64,000 nt of DNA, from positions 544,001 to 608,000 of the forward strand of contig OZ242376.1 in NCBI GenBank assembly GCA_965209085.1, in the 5' to 3' direction. The position numbers were made by a program, and so were the translations under genes. The DNA is from Nitrosopumilaceae archaeon (GTDB lineage Archaea; Thermoproteota; Nitrososphaeria; Nitrososphaerales; Nitrosopumilaceae). Below, piece after piece: positions 13,505 through 18,660 of this stretch. Numbering within the stretch: position 1 is the stretch's first letter; each line of letters begins with the position of its first letter. The notes below the pieces were generated by a model. That model searched no databases. It was not told the origin of the DNA and saw only the letters and a list, made by a program, of their open reading frames with translations.

Positions 13505-13725
13505 AAATTCCAATTATGATAATACAATACTTCAATCTAAATTATGTAATATTATAATAGACCTTGTGCATATCAATCACTAAAACATACGATTCCGACT
13601 ATGACGCTGTCATGATCAAAGTACACATGGCCTAAAACCTTCAAGCAGACAACAAAATAAATCAAAATATCATATGCATGACAAAAAAACAGAATATTAT
13701 ACGTGATCGTGTGCACAAAGATGTG

Positions 13726-14877
13726 CTACTTGATTTGAGGGCAGACTTTTTCCAACGGTTCGATATACTTGCGATCCTTTAACATGATGTGCAGGTTGGT
13801 CAGTCCTGTAACCACTTGGATTTCTGTATAAAACGCATCCATTGTGTCATCATATATGGTACTCATTCTACGGAACCATTTGAGCCGGTTTATGGCATGC
13901 TCTACTTTTATGCGCTTACGACTGATTCTCTTGCTGTATTCGCGTTCTGTCTCTGTCAATCCTCTGCCCTTTGGTTTTTTGTACGGTTGCTTTGAGATAA
14001 TTCCAGGATAGTCTTTTTCCACGGACAAGTATCCCTTGTCAGTATATAGCATAATTTGTCGCTCTTTGTTTGTATCCGAATTTTTCATGCCATCGGTCCA
14101 TTTGCCAAAATTTGGCGGATTACGTCGCAGTACCTCCATGTCATGTACTGAACCCTCTTCGGGTCCGCCAATGTCAAGTACCAGCCCGTCTTTGTTTGAG
14201 GTTATCTGTACGTTGTAGACGTGCCTCTTACGCTTTCCAGAGTATACTACCTCTTGGTTCTCCTGCGGTCTTTGAACCTGCACAAATGTGGCATCAAGAT
14301 ACAGCTCGCCACCGCCCCTGCCTGATGCGAATTTTTTAAACGACTCGATGGTACGCTCTTCCCGTATCGCAGCACCAACATTCTTAGCCGTTGGAAGAAT
14401 ATTCATCAACAGCTCATCAGCAAATACCAGATATCTGCTGATGGTACTCTGATCAACGCCTGCAATGGCTGCAAGCATTTCCTGTTTGGGGTTATTGCGC
14501 TTGCGGCATAGTGCGACAAACAAAATTTGTGGTGCAGTAAGAATACAGGTGTTTCCCGGATCGTCGACATATTCTGAAAAGCGAGGGGTTTCTGGCGAGT
14601 CTTCAACGGCATTTATGAACCGTTTCTGAATCCATTCAAATTCTTCACGATCCATTCCAGTCATCCCGTATAGATAATTGTCATCATCAACCATATGGTT
14701 CAAGTATTCATAAGCAGATTGTTTTTCGGTCTTATCCCCATCTATCATTTTTTTGTAGCGTTGGTTTTCTGCTTCAAGTTTGGAGATTCTTTTTTCCAAC
14801 TTGGAGATTATACGTTTGTCTGTAGCACACATGCTGTGTGATTGTAATACTTGATCATAGATCTTTCGATTTGCCAA
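13726..14877 (-). CDS. IS-A transposase (IS5/ISL2, DDE_Tnp_4-type)
   Basis: LYLDATF, YSGKRKRH, GSVHDM, TDKGY and RIKVEHAI..LKWFR motifs. Confidence 0.93.
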   Translation of the reverse strand: MANRKIYDQVLQSHSMCATDKRIISKLEKRISKLEAENQRYKKMIDGDKTEKQSAYEYLNHMVDDDNYLYGMTGMDREEFEWIQKRFINAVEDSPETPRFSEYVDDPGNTCILTAPQILFVALCRKRNNPKQEMLAAIAGVDQSTISRYLVFADELLMNILPTAKNVGAAIREERTIESFKKFASGRGGGELYLDATFVQVQRPQENQEVVYSGKRKRHVYNVQITSNKDGLVLDIGGPEEGSVHDMEVLRRNPPNFGKWTDGMKNSDTNKERQIMLYTDKGYLSVEKDYPGIISKQPYKKPKGRGLTETEREYSKRISRKRIKVEHAINRLKWFRRMSTIYDDTMDAFYTEIQVVTGLTNLHIMLKDRKYIEPLEKVCPQIK

Positions 14878-15668
14878 AATTGATTTTTTGGTTAATATGC
14901 ATAACCATATGTGAAGGGATCTTCTAAGACCACAGATGGTTGTAAGAATGTCAAACGATCCGTATCACCGAAACGTAAATCATCTAAAAAAGATCCAAAT
15001 GCAAACAAACAGATTACCACATATTCTGGGAAGAATATGTTTGTTGGAATGGACGTTCACAAGAAATTTCTTCAAGTTGCAATGATGGATAAAAAAGCCA
15101 AAGTGATTTTTAATGAGAGGATTGAAAATGAAAACAAGTCCATCAGCCGATTCTTCAGATCAAGTGTACCTGAAAATGCAAAAATCGTAATGGAATCTTC
15201 GTCCGTATGGTACGGATTATATCGATACATGACAGATAAAATGGGTTATGATGTCGTATTGTCAAATCCATGGGCGACAAAAATCATCGCCGCATCCAAG
15301 AAAAAGACCGACAAGAGGGATGCTGTAACACTTGCAGACCTATTACGGTGCGGATACATATCCCTCTGTCATGTCTCAAACAAGGACATAGTGGAACAAC
15401 GGCAACTTGTACGATATCGCGACAGTCTTGTCAAGACAAGAACAACTCTAAAAAACAAAATACATGGAATTTTGTTACAGGGAGGGATAAAGATCTTTGG
15501 AGCAACATTTACGCTTACATACAATAGAAAACTGCGTTCTCTAAAGGATTACCGTATAAACGGATATTTGGATTCTATTGGATTCGTTAATACAAAAATT
15601 GCAGACTCAAACATAAAAGTACACAACGCATCCTGTTCAAACAAGGATGCAATGTTGCTCAAGACAAT

Positions 15669-17068
15669 AGACCTCATGCATAATTAACTAAAAAATCAAT
15701 TTTGGCAAATCGAAAGATCTATGATCTAGTATCATGTGAGCATAGCATGTGCAAATCAGACAAACGCATGATCTCTAAACTGGAAAAGACGATCTTAAAG
15801 ATGGAAAAGACGATCCTAAAGATGGAAAAGAATAGCTCCAGGCAGGAATCAGAAATTCAACACTACAAAAAGATGGCACAGAGTAGCAATGATGACAAAA
15901 GACAACATGTCGATAAATATTTGAACAAGGGAATTGGGAATGATGTTCATCTATATGAAATGACAGGAATGAACCGTGAAGAATTTGAATGGATTCTAGA
16001 ACGGTTCAAAAAAACCGTAGAAAATTCATCAGAGATTCCCCGCTTTTCAGAATATGTGGACGATCCTGGAAACACCTGTATCCTTACCGTAAAGCAAGTT
16101 TTGTTTATCGTATTGTGCCGCAAACGCAATAATCTCAAACAGGGAGCACTTGCGTTCATTGCAGACGTTGATCAGAGCACCATTAGCAGATATCTGACAT
16201 TTTCTGATGAACTATTGATGGATATTCTTCCAACGGCTAAGAATATTGGTGCTGCAATACGGACAATACGTACAAGCGAGTTGTTTAAAAAATTCGTACC
16301 CGGCAGAGGCGGCGGCGAGCTATATCTTGATGCCACGTTTGTACAGGTTCAAAGACCGCAGGAGAATCAAGAAACAGTATACTATTCTGGAAAGCGCAAA
16401 AGGCACGTCTACAGCATACAGATAACCTCCAACAAAGATGGAGTGGTAAATGACATTGGCGGTCCAGAAGAGGGCTCAGTACATGACATGGAGGTACTGC
16501 GGCGTAATCCGCCAAATTTTGGCAAATGGACCGATGGCATGAAAAACTCTGATACAAAAAAAGAGCGCCAAATTACACTCTACACCGACAAGGGATACTT
16601 GTCCGTGGAAAAAGACTATCCTGGAATTATCTCAAAGCAGCCATACAAAAAACCAAAGGGTAGGGGATTGACAGAGACAGAACGCGAATATAGCAAGAGG
16701 ATCAGTCGTAAGCGCATAAAAGTAGAGCATGCCATAAACCGGCTCAAATGGTTTCGCAGAATGAGTGCCGTATATGATGACACAATGGATGCATTTTATA
16801 CAGAAATCCAAGTGGTTACAGGACTGACCAATCTGCACATCATGTTAAAGGATCGCAAGTATATCGAACCGTTGGAAAAAATTTGCCCTCAAATCAAGTA
16901 GCACATCTTTGTGCACACGGTTACGCATAATATTCTGCTTTTTGTCATGCATATGATATTTTGATTTATTTTGTTGTCTGCTTGAAGGTTTTAGGCCATG
17001 TGTACTTTGATCATGACAGTGTCATAGTAGGAACCGTATGTCTTTGCAGTTGATTATGCATGAACTCT
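15669..17068 (+). mobile_element. IS-A complete copy (1400 bp)
   Basis: TIRs AGACCTCATGCATAAT and ATTATGCATGAACTCT; TSD AAT at 15666-15668 and 17069-17071. Confidence 0.95.
15702..16901 (+). CDS. IS-A transposase
   Basis: 399 aa with DDE motifs; near-identical to 28970-30166. Confidence 0.93.
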   Translation: MANRKIYDLVSCEHSMCKSDKRMISKLEKTILKMEKTILKMEKNSSRQESEIQHYKKMAQSSNDDKRQHVDKYLNKGIGNDVHLYEMTGMNREEFEWILERFKKTVENSSEIPRFSEYVDDPGNTCILTVKQVLFIVLCRKRNNLKQGALAFIADVDQSTISRYLTFSDELLMDILPTAKNIGAAIRTIRTSELFKKFVPGRGGGELYLDATFVQVQRPQENQETVYYSGKRKRHVYSIQITSNKDGVVNDIGGPEEGSVHDMEVLRRNPPNFGKWTDGMKNSDTKKERQITLYTDKGYLSVEKDYPGIISKQPYKKPKGRGLTETEREYSKRISRKRIKVEHAINRLKWFRRMSAVYDDTMDAFYTEIQVVTGLTNLHIMLKDRKYIEPLEKICPQIK

Positions 17069-17435
17069 AATACCTGGCATAGGTGATTTTATTTCATTGA
17101 TACTGGCAGCAGAGATTGATGGAGTTGAGAGGTTTTCTGAACCAAAACAACTCAAATCATATGCAGGTCTTGCCCCATCGGTTCGCAATTCAGCAGATGT
17201 GGTCCATCACGGACATGTAACAAAAAGAGGAAGCAGGATGATGCGGTGGGCACTGGTGGAAGCTGTTACCACCCATGTCCGATTTGCATCAGAGAGTAAC
17301 ATTTCTGAATTTTACCGGCGTCTTGCAAAAAAGAGAGGATCATCCAAGGCCAAAGTTGCAGCAGCGGCCAAGATGCTTGATATCATATTTCGTATGCTAA
17401 AGGATAGGAGTGAATTTGAAATACATCATAGTTAA

Positions 17436-17640
17436 AGCAACAAACCGCGAGTTAGAGTTTGGGGATGTTACCCCGTTGCATAACTGCGGTAAGCTTTAAC
17501 ATGTGGACGAAGATGGTTGTGGGGTTAAATCCCGAATGGATAGATGTCTTTTTACCTTTTGACTGGAAACAAACACATAGCGAAAGCCATACCGCATGAC
17601 ACAAAAAAGCAAGAAACCTTTAAAAAGTATTCACATGGAT
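17436..17640 (+). ncRNA. Candidate IS110 bridge/seek RNA with target-binding and donor-binding loops
   Basis: Guides TAGAGTTT (17453-17460) and TGCATAA (17477-17483) flank the GGGG/CCCC hairpin and match the target. ATGGTT (17513-17518) and ATGGATA (17536-17542) flank a second hairpin and match the donor junction. RNA boundaries are approximate. Confidence 0.75.
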
Positions 17641-17647
17641 AAACTCT

Positions 17648-17853
17648 ATTGAACCGTTGGAAAAAGTCTGCCCTCAAATCAAGTAGCACATCTTTGTGCA
17701 CACGGTCACGCATAATATTCTGCTTTTTGTCATGCATGTGACATTTTGATTTATTTTGTTGTCTGCTTGAAGGTTTTAGGCCATGTGTACTTTGATCATG
17801 ACAGTGTCATAGTAGGAACCGTATGTCTCAGGGATTGATTATGCATGAACTCT
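17648..17853 (+). mobile_element. Isolated IS-A right end
   Basis: Encodes IEPLEKVCPQIK*, then the 3' UTR and TIR ATTATGCATGAACTCT, followed by AAT. Confidence 0.9.
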
Positions 17854-17946
17854 AATATGTTGAACGTTTTCTTCAATTATTGGTCAATAATGGTTGGGGG
17901 AATTAAATTTATAATCACCTTGAATCTTTGTATGTGCAAAGATAAT

Positions 17947-18660
17947 TTAGGACTTTGGATAATAGCGACAATAAAATTTCCACCACAATTTCCAATATTT
18001 AGATCTATTTTCCCAACCTTGTAATATTTGTTCGATATAAATTAAAGCATCATGTTTTGTTTTTTTAATTATATATTTTTGCAATGGATTAAAACGTAGT
18101 TTATTATATTCATTATAAATACCTCTTATCCCTGATCTAAAAATATTCAAATTTGACCAAAAATATTTTGCATCTTTTTTATAATTAATTATTTTAATTT
18201 TTAATGATTTTTTTTCAAAATAATCTACATCTGTAATTAGTAATCCATCATTTAATAAATACGATATGCATTGTTTTAATATTTTATATCTTCTAACTCC
18301 AGTTACATATAGTACTGCTTTACTACATATTACAATATTTGCCTTTGGTCCTTTGTATGATAAGTTAAGAATATCTTCATTTATAAATTCATCACAATTT
18401 TTTTTTGCTTTATTTTTAATATTTTTTTTCTTAGTAACGTCAATGCCTATAATATATGGGTTAATATTCTCCCTTTTTATTCTCTCACGTGAATCATTTA
18501 TTGCTACTCCAGTAGAACAACATGCATCAATAATTACTGGAGATGTTAATTTTTTATCTTTTAAATATTCCATTATTAACTTATCGATTCCAGTGTATTC
18601 ATACCTGTTACTATATGTAGTAGTATTCTTCCAATTTCCATCTGACATAATATGTGACAT
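17947..18660 (-). CDS. Class I SAM-dependent methyltransferase-like protein
   Basis: IIDACCSTG (motif I-like), IIGIDV, and LLNDGLLI; very AT-rich. Confidence 0.6.
   Translation of the reverse strand: MSHIMSDGNWKNTTTYSNRYEYTGIDKLIMEYLKDKKLTSPVIIDACCSTGVAINDSRERIKRENINPYIIGIDVTKKKNIKNKAKKNCDEFINEDILNLSYKGPKANIVICSKAVLYVTGVRRYKILKQCISYLLNDGLLITDVDYFEKKSLKIKIINYKKDAKYFWSNLNIFRSGIRGIYNEYNKLRFNPLQKYIIKKTKHDALIYIEQILQGWENRSKYWKLWWKFYCRYYPKS

Follow-up and report, generated by a model that had tools for sequence, protein, structure and literature searches.

An archaeal IS1111-type element with a predicted bispecific guide RNA matched to the terminal inverted repeat of an IS5-like transposon

Relation to described RNA-guided elements

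Elements of the IS1111 group combine a DEDD recombinase (PF01548 plus PF02371) with a guide RNA, called seekRNA or bridge RNA, that is encoded downstream of the gene and has a two-loop architecture; ISEc11, ISKpn4 and ISPa11 are examples (Siddiquee et al. 2024, PMC11187229; Durrant et al. 2024, PMC11208160). In their 3' non-coding region the complement of the target top strand lies 5' of the complement of the bottom strand, and the subterminal inverted repeats carry terminal extensions of 7 bp on the left and 3 bp on the right (PMC11187229); the repeats themselves range from 7 to 17 bp (PMC11208160). In the IS110-group element IS621 (PDB 8wt6) the RNA is likewise bispecific: a target loop and a donor loop each read the left and right halves of their DNA on separate strands around a common 2-bp core. 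There, however, the left end encodes the RNA, the guides come in the opposite order and CT serves as the core (PMC11208160).

The window, a stretch of 64,000 nucleotides from a Nitrosopumilaceae archaeon, very probably contains an IS1111-type element whose bispecific guide RNA targets the terminal inverted repeat (TIR) of an IS5-like transposon. The element shares with its bacterial counterparts the recombinase domains, the downstream position and order of the guides, the two loops and the extended subterminal repeats. It differs in its archaeal host and TA crossover dinucleotide. A literature search for an IS110/IS1111 bridge RNA system in ammonia-oxidising archaea found no description, although supplementary tables of IS110 elements may include such elements.

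IS4321 and IS5075, also of the IS1111 type, reportedly land in the TIRs of bacterial Tn3-family transposons. As in those elements, the TIR of another transposon is here a specific landing site entered in one orientation. Unlike there, the hosts are archaeal IS5-like and IS630-family insertion sequences (ISs), and sister lineages use different positions of one repeat or the tip of another IS.

The features of the element and its surroundings are as follows.

13559..14903, minus strand: host IS5-like element ('IS-A') with its transposase at 13726-14877 (Pfam, sequence comparison)
14902..14903, plus strand: left crossover dinucleotide TA (all left junctions read TA followed by sequence like ACCATATG)
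14904..17639, plus strand: IS1111-type (IS110 family) element, ACCATATGTGAA ... TTCACATGGA (copy comparison)
14909..14915, plus strand: left subterminal inverted repeat ATGTGAA, pairing with TTCACAT at 17630-36
15037..15668, plus strand: recombinase gene, N-terminal part (DEDD/RuvC-like domain; Pfam PF01548, E 3.4e-28)
15669..17068, plus strand: secondary IS5-like insertion (IS-A; Pfam DDE_Tnp_4, E 8e-20)
17072..17435, plus strand: recombinase gene, C-terminal part (Transposase_20 domain, GLAPSVRNSA; Pfam PF02371, E 1.1e-16)
17619..17626, plus strand: outward-facing A/T box TTTAAAAA (position kept in relatives)
17630..17636, plus strand: right subterminal inverted repeat TTCACAT, with the 3-bp extension GGA to its right
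17640..17641, plus strand: right crossover dinucleotide TA (22/22 tabulated right junctions read GGA, AGA or GAG followed by TA)
17642..17647, plus strand: severed 6-bp tip AACTCT of the host TIR (uninterrupted TATGCA-TA/TG-AACTCT-A ends occur elsewhere)
17651..17853, plus strand: 3' fragment of a further IS-A copy (similar to 16865-17068)

Boundaries were set from about 17 copies in the genome and from paired copies in relatives. The element measures 1336 bp once the secondary insertion is subtracted (its start is 14902 if one TA is counted as part of the IS), and full-length copies elsewhere in the genome measure 1337-1340 bp. Its ends, TAACCAT-ATGTGAA ... TTCACAT-GGA, show the asymmetric IS1111 extensions, 7 bp (TAACCAT) ahead of the left repeat and 3 bp after the right one. 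The repeat itself, 7 bp and perfect, stands at the low end of the described range; short subterminal repeats (7-10 bp) are among the differences from bacterial IS1111 elements.

The first-pass annotation had read the junctions as ATGCAT-AA before CCATATGTGAA (14897-14915) and TTCACATGGAT-AA before ACTCT (17630-17647), with AA as the duplicated core. Both strings lie where it placed them, but the AA core had to be dropped because it conflicts with right junctions of GGAT-AC, GGAT-AT or GGGT-GA in other copies. TA is the duplicated dinucleotide at the crossover that agrees with all copies and relatives. An AT core was ruled out as well, TA alone being duplicated at every junction. In contigs from public sequencing runs, loose ends of other copies part from the window sequence after 17641/17642, and the loose ends and joints in contigs of four such runs are accounted for by other genomic copies. 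Neither a circle joint nor an empty-site joint was among those listed, which in contig-only data weighs neither way.

The A/T box begins 21 nt ahead of the right-hand TA, its last A lying 13 nt ahead, and in 31/31 distinct rows an A/T-rich box precedes CACAT at a distance that agrees to 1-2 bases. It may be an archaeal TATA-like promoter that reads over the circle junction into the recombinase gene, in contrast to the split -35/-10 halves at the right end of bacterial IS1111 elements.

The recombinase has both IS110 family domains and the conserved motif serine. An intact paralogue scores 219.2 bits on the NCBIfam model NF033542, 'IS110 family RNA-guided transposase' (cut-off 140). Among recombinases of solved structure, ISCro4 (9t56) matches at E 3e-8 and IS621 more distantly, at E 6.6e-6 over the C-terminal domain only. 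The serine of GLAPSVRNSA aligns with the SG serine of ISCro4, the next residue being A and not G; the motif is thus GL-P----SA, compared with SG or TG in bacterial IS1111 members. Upstream of the gene start, an in-frame GTG at 14911 is likewise open. From the TAA stop codon (17433-35), 204 nt of non-coding sequence extend from 17435 to the right end at 17639, a long region characteristic of IS1111 elements and present downstream of the gene in all relatives examined.

The gene is split by a second IS-A of 1400 bp (transposase 15702-16901), flanked by a 3-bp duplication AAT at 15666-68 and 17069-71; NCBIfam IS5 matches for IS-A are weak and under cut-off. Contigs from three public runs skip 1403 bases at this insertion, confirming its size, and its removal in silico leaves the recombinase frame intact. 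Because its gene is split, the window copy is non-autonomous and no longer makes its own recombinase.

A predicted guide RNA with target and donor modules

The non-coding region would encode a bispecific guide RNA of about 120 nt, starting in the last codons of the gene and comprising the following parts, all on the plus strand.

17431..17500, plus strand: target-binding module of the predicted guide RNA (consensus fold, guide/flank tests)
17431-36 with 17495-17500, plus strand: basal stem of the target module (consensus fold)
17445-49 with 17485-89, plus strand: outer stem of the target module (consensus fold)
17450-60, plus strand: 5' loop of the target module, AGTTAGAGTTT, with the right-target guide UAGAGUUU at 17453-60
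17461-74, plus strand: hairpin of the target module, GGGG-ATGTTA-CCCC (window sequence)
17475-83, plus strand: 3' loop of the target module, GTTGCATAA, with the left-target guide UGCAUAA at 17477-83
17505..17549, plus strand: donor-binding module of the predicted guide RNA (consensus fold, end variants)
17505-09 with 17545-49, plus strand: outer stem of the donor module (consensus fold)
17513-18, plus strand: 5' loop of the donor module, AUGGUU, complementary to left-end AACCAT
17520-34, plus strand: hairpin of the donor module (consensus fold)
17536-42, plus strand: 3' loop of the donor module, AUGGAUA, identical to the right end plus TA
17577..17590, plus strand: apparent third small conserved hairpin (UAGC-tetraloop-GCYA type), past the donor module and ahead of the right end (seen by eye in relatives' sequences)

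The strings of both modules had been picked out in the first-pass annotation and are present at the positions it gave; those of the target-module stem are ACCGCG (17444-49) and CTGCGGT (17484-90). In the target loop, the right flank finds its complement in the 5' strand, and the 3' strand repeats the top-strand sequence of the left flank; this is the IS1111 guide order.

A fold common to 21 homologous regions of the same archaeal family comprises 25 pairs in five helices, with 93.9% of cells paired; this value drops to 31.5-46.7% when the partners are slid by 1-3 columns. Fourteen of the 25 pairs are changed on both sides (a value reached by 1/500 shuffles), and the covariation score is 0.422, against 0.241 in shuffles (0/500). 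In helices 1-3, 96.8, 96.2 and 79.8% of cells pair, and two-sided changes affect 4, 4 and 3 of their pairs, respectively; in helices 4 and 5 pairing reaches 97.1 and 96.2%. RNAalifold independently yields 23 pairs, 14 of them compensatory, and leaves the guide columns unpaired. Alignment of homologous right ends, which had been proposed as a check on the two-loop model, thus gave a common fold with compensatory changes and with the guides exposed. By itself, the window sequence folds no better than shuffles (minimum free energy z-score -1.36), and in that single-sequence fold AGUUA pairs with UAACU, hiding the outer ends of both guides; these pairs are absent from the consensus structure. A scan of 14500-18200 against Rfam 15 (E <= 10) returned no family and nothing beyond two snoRNA matches at chance level (E 3.9 and 10), and the public runs listed for this stretch include no RNA run; both results count against the model.

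The guides also track the DNA next to their own element. Across 22 elements, pairing each 5' loop with the right junction of the same element gives a mean match score of 7.05, compared with 3.89 +/- 0.25 for permuted pairs (0/20000); for the 3' loop and the left junction (n = 19) the values are 6.16 and 3.79 +/- 0.24 (0/20000). The signal persists once constant bases and near-duplicates are removed, at 5.84 versus 3.42 on the right (n = 19) and 3.65 versus 2.46 on the left (n = 17), again with 0/20000 permutations reaching it. Among 70 model-aligned copies, the mean contiguous run is 6.7 in 51 distinct right pairs and 5.6 in 39 distinct left pairs, against 3.5 in controls on either side; the end patterns missed 14/70 copies on the right and 25/70 on the left, and these lie outside the counts. 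The 22-element table covers loci whose loops and ends could be placed by the same patterns (which leaves aside L035, L037, L038, L040 in part, L041, L044, L062 and L068) and stops short of the more distant recombinase matches (25-37% identity). A single-protein search for related loci gave one locus, in a Nitrosopumilus sp. MAG, and further relatives came from a genome search.

The donor module behaves similarly. The claim that its loop matches the two halves of the donor junction holds for AUGGUU with the left end and AUGGAUA with the right end, and extends to end variants in relatives: the triplet in the 3' strand equals the right-end triplet in 27/31 distinct rows (GGA 17, AGA 9, GAG 1), and the 5' strand tracks the left-end variants ACCGT, ACTAT and ATCAT. 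The donor loop would thus read the abutted ends of a putative excised circle, ..CACATGGA-TA-ACCATATG...

The register of the 5' guide to the crossover TA shifts from -1 to +2 nt across lineages, which is unexpected for a rigid ribonucleoprotein and counts against the model; in the window's lineage this guide covers one TA base only. A further point against it is that none of the four copies sharing the window's guide type retains an unbroken recombinase gene. Flank matches are poor (score 4) for L040 and L042 on the right and for L027, L032, L033 and L057 on the left.

Such imperfect matches in several elements, together with bases next to the loops that stay constant (TAA and AUA) and could be protein contacts, speak for the alternative that the protein alone picks the site, the complementary strings in the 3' region being a DNA-level by-product, for example a fossil copy of target or end. 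This explanation is nevertheless highly improbable. The half-sites lie on opposite strands of internal loops and are framed by compensated stems, a pattern that reflects selection on the RNA. Two copies of the sister genome G019 (L056 and L057), whose recombinases are 98% identical, differ in both guide (U->G) and flank (A->C). An RNA requirement has moreover been shown by experiment in homologous bacterial systems (PMC11187229, PMC11208160).

Under the guide RNA model, the DEDD (RuvC-like) serine-assisted recombinase that the element encodes would bind the RNA, and two short target-loop guides would jointly specify ...TATGCA-TA-AACTCT, the TIR of an abundant IS5-like element. Recombination at the common TA, where cleavage presumably takes place, would place the element, always in the same orientation, 6 bp inside the end of the host transposon, whose tip is thereby cut off.

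Insertion sites and natural retargeting

In the window, the element sits inside the TIR of the host IS-A, 6 bp from its tip. The host IS-A had itself inserted in a further IS-A copy, forming a nested pile of ISs. The empty target proposed in the first-pass annotation, ATGCATAAACTCT, corresponds to a real TIR that recurs uninterrupted in the genome, as TATGCA-TA-AACTCTA four times and as TATGCA-TG-AACTCTA 11 times. Mapping of insertion sites agreed with this target: 17/17 right ends of the element adjoin TIR-tip-like sequence, 11/12 left junctions read TATGCATA followed by A, and a single orientation is found throughout. The proposal of an RNA-guided recombinase using an IS5-family TIR as its landing pad is therefore supported, except that the window copy, with its gene split, is not autonomous. 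TG occupies the crossover in 43/99 uninterrupted matches to the TA-/TG-core pattern and in 1/17 occupied sites, a contrast not used as evidence because the crossover bases of occupied sites may be donor-derived.

Changes of guide and flank go together in several lineages. The four genomic copies with guide UAGAGUUU all flank AACTCT (with one A fewer at 687736), while a lineage with guide UAGACUUU mostly flanks GGTCT; three copies of the latter adjoin AACTCT, one mismatch off, and none lies at the perfect match AAGTCT. A 70%-identical sister lineage with guide GCGCAGUAUAU abuts the IS630-family tip TATACTGCGG, a 10-nt match. Insertion of the IS630 element beside the IS1111-type element, or composite movement of both, was rejected, as uninterrupted IS630 tips exist; with a TA core, both left flanks of this lineage run cleanly into the sequence on the far side of the IS630 copy. 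The lineage of the sister genome targets another TA of the same TIR, and three genomes from two genera show insertion at one or other of two TA positions in the IS5-like repeat. Comparable natural retargeting among roughly 70%-identical relatives has been reported for ISEc11 and ISXne4 (PMC11187229, PMC11208160).

The flanks could instead reflect shared descent, the copies having spread mainly as passengers of their host ISs after one or a few ancient insertions. Every copy does lie inside a mobile host, which would take left flank and 6-bp tip along when it moves; in 728596 and 959468, both truncated, the flanks stay identical far past the tip; and the mosaic make-up of 686400-687736, with parts from two lineages, shows that copies recombine with one another. 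Against such passenger spread, the left flanks represent at least five host contexts, including the 5' and 3' ends of IS-A and the two ends of a second IS type, and the tips vary among copies (AACTCT, AGGTCT, CGGTCT, TGGTCT, ACCTCT). It would also leave the joint change of loop and flank in other lineages and genomes unexplained, and loss of the tip should hamper transposition of the host. We consider it unlikely as the main route, although some of the copies could have arisen because a host IS-A took the insert with it, and not through new RNA-guided events.

Whether the family is still mobile in this genome is a separate matter. Only 2/7 other full-length copies retain an open recombinase frame, many ends are truncated fragments, and the window copy is itself split by IS-A. 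The element might thus belong to a decaying, immobile family in which guide/target matches record past activity only. We find this doubtful, since the two intact copies, one of which has its recombinase at genome positions 156309-157647, differ at 4/1341 aligned positions and occupy different sites, and dozens of TA-core TIR ends (up to 56 by a loose pattern) are still unoccupied. One nonsense mutation is common to two copies at opposite ends of IS-A elements, which suggests that they moved once already inactivated, using recombinase provided in trans. The guide module of the window copy is intact and could at most work with the recombinase of the two intact copies elsewhere.

Implications for mobile elements of ammonia-oxidising archaea

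The bridge RNA/seekRNA mechanism and the targeting of TIRs are already known in bacteria; the window element reveals no new mechanism and is a well-supported new archaeal member. It would place the IS1111 mechanism in ammonia-oxidising archaea, and it adds compact (about 120 nt) predicted guide scaffolds, a TA core and intact natural recombinases to the known set. Many copies and several retargeted lineages, in a genome assembled as a single contig, constitute a natural data set.

A more speculative and rather doubtful reading is that the family is a hyperparasite in an arms race with other ISs of ammonia-oxidising archaea. If so, guides would be repeatedly retuned to the tips of whichever IS proliferates, and every hit would amputate the tip of a host IS. 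The hosts would reply with TG-for-TA variants of the repeat at the crossover and by jumping into the recombinase gene, while copies that lack a working recombinase but have a guide module of their own would go on being mobilised in trans.

In this IS-rich archaeal genome, one mobile element thus appears to land in other mobile elements by means of RNA guides, probably disabling the elements that it targets. Such a process may bear on the control of IS load and on the origin of 'safe' landing sites.

Nested insertion sequences and the crossover dinucleotide

The IS1111-type element sits within an end of IS-A, an abundant IS5-like element, and itself contains a second IS-A copy. All strings quoted in the first-pass annotation are present (14700-17900 and ORFs), and its coordinates agree when each ruler label marks the first base of its line. 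The locus comprises:

13559-14903, minus strand: outer IS-A, with a transposase (DDE_Tnp_4, E 2.4e-21; weak IS5 matches in NCBIfam)
14904-17639: IS110-family block (N-terminal half PF01548, E 3.4e-28; C-terminal half PF02371, E 1.1e-16)
15669-17068: second IS-A copy inside the block, 1400 bp, with a 3-bp duplication (AAT)
17642-17647: severed IS-A tip AACTCT, 3' of the block

The outer IS-A is broken 6 bp from its own tip by the 2736-bp block. Contigs of three public runs skip 1403 bases precisely at the inner IS-A site, and the recombinase reading frame is open once that insertion is removed in silico; the window copy was therefore probably functional until IS-A landed in its recombinase gene. 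As a whole, 13559-17853 holds insertion sequences nested four deep (an IS-A fragment, an IS-A within it, the IS1111-type element in the repeat of that IS-A, and an IS-A in the recombinase gene). The duplications made by IS-A are 3 bp long and of the AAT/ATT type.

An intact recombinase, encoded by a paralogue elsewhere in the genome, passes the 140-bit cut-off of NCBIfam NF033542 ('IS110 family RNA-guided transposase') with 219 bits and matches the solved recombinases of ISCro4 (E 3e-8) and IS621 (E 6.6e-6). In the ISCro4 alignment, the serine of GLAPSVRNSA falls on the SG serine of ISCro4.

An AA core, as originally proposed, fits the window copy but is contradicted by copies with the right junctions GGAT-AC, GGAT-AT or GGGT-GA, and was rejected; TA is consistent with all copies and 19 relatives. 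Throughout this set, the left junction is always TA followed by a ACCATATG-like end, and the right junction is always GGA (or AGA, GAG) followed by TA. Given these constant junctions, the simplest description is a TA crossover of which the target and the circle junction each carry a single copy, and which insertion doubles. The empty site TATGCA-TA-AACTCT and the predicted circle junction ATGGA-TA-ACCAT are unchanged by this revision. When one TA is counted with the element, 7 bp lie beyond the left subterminal repeat (ATGTGAA) and 3 bp beyond the right one (TTCACAT), the lengths of terminal extension stated for IS1111 elements (PMC11187229).

Copies and landing sites

BLAST of the whole host genome (1.69 Mb, a single contig) identified 17 right ends (89-100% identity) and 12 left ends. 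Besides the window copy there are seven full-length copies of 1337-1340 bp, and in two of these (genome 156309-157647 and 693553-694891) the recombinase frame is still open, at about 330-373 aa. Mapping of insertion sites bore out the suggested landing pad: all 17 right ends adjoin tip-like sequence of one repeat family (AACTCT, AGGTCT, CGGTCT, TGGTCT or ACCTCT, then A). The left junction is TATGCATA followed by A in 11 of 12 cases, and the orientation of the insert relative to the repeat is constant among copies. Left flanks represent at least five contexts, including the IS-A 5' end, the IS-A 3' end and two ends of a second IS type.

A loose pattern, some of whose matches are due to chance, found 99 uninterrupted ends of the repeat family with a TA (56) or TG (43) core, for example at 17058-17068 and 17846-17853 in the window. 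TA stands at the right junction of 16 of the 17 occupied sites, compared with this 56 to 43 division. Among AACTCT tips, unoccupied ones have 4 TA and 11 TG, and occupied ones about 7 TA and 1 TG. TG ends could escape insertion; alternatively, the crossover bases of occupied sites may derive from the donor.

Two points weigh against the RNA-guided reading: the recombinase gene is broken in all four copies with the guide type of the window, and some copies may have spread as passengers. The copy at genome 686400-687736 is a mosaic whose 5' two-thirds resemble 682076-683413, including the same frameshift, and whose guide-RNA region is of the window's type; copies therefore recombine or convert one another. 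In copies 963197-964535 and 476687-478025 the recombinase gene has the same two-base change, which introduces a stop codon (AGATGA), yet the first or second of them occupies the 5' end of an IS-A element and its partner the 3' end of another. Movement of one or both copies seems to have followed the loss of the gene, presumably by a recombinase acting in trans, the alternative being gene conversion.

Predicted guide RNA scaffold and covariation with flanks

A single-sequence fold of the 221-nt guide-RNA stretch is no better than shuffles (z = -1.36), its minimum free energy form pairs AGUUA with UAACU and buries the outer guide ends, and no family in Rfam 15 matches the region. The argument for an RNA is comparative. 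Searching 300 same-family genomes with the protein recovered relatives in 40 (a tally that includes the unpublished G227); a relative with a public name is a Nitrosopumilus sp. MAG. Relatives at 41-62% protein identity keep one scaffold 3' of the stop codon:

First module, in order: basal stem including the stop codon; outer stem CCGCG/CUGCGG; variable 11-nt 5' loop; small hairpin; variable 9-10-nt 3' loop with UAA at its end
Remainder: linker, then a second module of the same shape

The proposed fold check gave a favorable result: in the RNAalifold consensus of 22 sequences, compensatory changes occur in 14 of the 23 predicted pairs, and the guide columns remain single-stranded. A hand-written structure was also scored on a trimmed alignment (21 sequences, 25 pairs, 525 cells). 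Paired cells make up 93.9%, versus 31.5-46.7% when partners are slid by 1-3 columns; both-sided change occurs in 14 of 25 pairs (equalled by 1 of 500 shuffles), and the covariation score is 0.422 versus 0.241 in shuffles (0 of 500). The same alignment was turned into a covariance model, which hits 20 places in the window's genome, 23 in the same-genus sister genome G019, and 19 of 151 family genomes including the window's own. A third small hairpin (17577-17590), of the type UAGC-tetraloop-GCYA and often with a GNRA loop, lies between the donor module and the right end and recurs in relatives.

Target guides covary with flanks on both sides, as the first-pass annotation anticipated. Loop columns came from the alignment, and conserved end motifs located the junctions. 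Compared as its reverse complement with its own right junction, the 5' loop reaches a mean local score of 7.05 (permuted 3.89 +/- 0.25; 0 of 20000), the own right flank being best or tied best in 19 of 22 rows. The 3' loop matches its own left junction at 6.16 (permuted 3.79 +/- 0.24; 0 of 20000, n=19). Both matches persist without constant bases and near-duplicate rows. Among 70 model-aligned copies, excluding the 14 right and 25 left ends missed by the end patterns, contiguous Watson-Crick runs average 6.7 in 51 distinct right pairs and 5.6 in 39 distinct left pairs, versus 3.5 on either side for controls (on the right, flanks of differently guided elements).

Individual lineages can be compared in the same way. 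In the window lineage, the right guide UAGAGUUU pairs with AAACTCTA, and the left guide UGCAUAA is identical to TGCATAA, perfectly so in the window copy; the right guide matches the flank in 4 of 4 copies (the flank of 687736 is one A shorter), and copy 478025 has the left guide UGUAUAA. In a sister lineage of the same genome, most copies with guide UAGACUUU adjoin GGTCT (one position being G·U), but three adjoin AACTCT, one mismatch off. In a 70%-identical lineage (three full right ends and one variant), GCGCAGUAUAU matches ATATACTGCG, which combines TA with the tip of IS-C, an IS630-family element (DDE_3, E 2e-14; NF033545, 112.9 bits, cut-off 100). The window holds a partial IS-C copy near 36700 (genome 580423-580713, minus strand) with the tip TATATTGCGG and no adjoining IS1111-type element; IS-C is TA-flanked and about 1120 bp when complete. 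In a G019 lineage inserted beside IS-A-like transposase genes, GUCAAUAA equals the left flank GTCAATAA and the 5' guide pairs with ATGCATAAGG, so that a TA 6 bp deeper in the same kind of repeat is in use. Between two 98%-identical G019 copies, a guide change of U to G is accompanied by a flank change of A to C. In G001, from another genus, ACGCAUAA equals the left flank and the right flank is CGGTCTAAT. Counting against the guide reading, the register of the 5' guide to TA shifts by -1 to +2 nt among lineages, and several elements have a poor match on one side.

Donor loop, proposed mechanism and significance

On its 3' strand the donor loop carries AUGGAUA, identical to the right end together with TA. 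Of 31 distinct rows, 27 have a variable triplet here that agrees with their own right end (GGA 17, AGA 9, GAG 1), the four exceptions being decayed copies. The donor 5' strand is complementary to the left-end ACCAT and tracks the variants ACCGT, ACTAT and ATCAT. In L040 and L068, two related loci, the right end (a CACATGGAT-like motif) occurs twice, 15 and 51 nt apart, as if duplicated. One further feature recurs at the right end:

17619-17626: A/T box TTTAAAAA, at a near-constant distance (within 1-2 bases) before the right subterminal repeat in 31 of 31 distinct rows

This box may act as an archaeal promoter of TATA type that faces outward and would reach the recombinase only across a circle junction, analogous to junction promoters of bacterial relatives (PMC11187229). 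The recombinase frame is open from a GTG at 14911, inside the left subterminal repeat, which puts about 42 codons ahead of the conserved start MFVGMDVHK. In a circle, the position of this GTG would be near the start of a transcript from the A/T box. The 70%-identical lineage lacks this open extension.

With the top-strand complement first, the guides follow the order that Siddiquee et al. (PMC11187229) reported for IS1111 elements. Combining the anatomy of this element with experiments on bacterial relatives (PMC11187229, PMC11208160), the element would excise as a circle, and the RNA-loaded recombinase would pair its donor loop with the abutted ends and its target loop with the repeat. Strand exchange would then take place at the shared TA. 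RNA transcription and processing, the circle and the cleavage chemistry are presumed.

Bridge RNAs, or seekRNAs, of IS110 and IS1111 elements are established, and a 2003 paper reportedly described IS1111 members aimed at terminal repeats of Tn21-family transposons. Of the IS1111 elements in ISfinder, 93% have a bridge RNA predicted by Durrant et al. (PMC11208160), and archaeal IS110 recombinases are known in the hundreds (662 in preprint 10.1101/2024.06.21.599552). Literature searches turned up no description of such a system in ammonia-oxidising archaea, though published supplementary tables may list elements of this kind. The element is a well-supported further case of the known IS1111 bridge/seekRNA type. 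Its value lies mainly in providing a natural covariation data set and an example of one insertion sequence using RNA guides against others.
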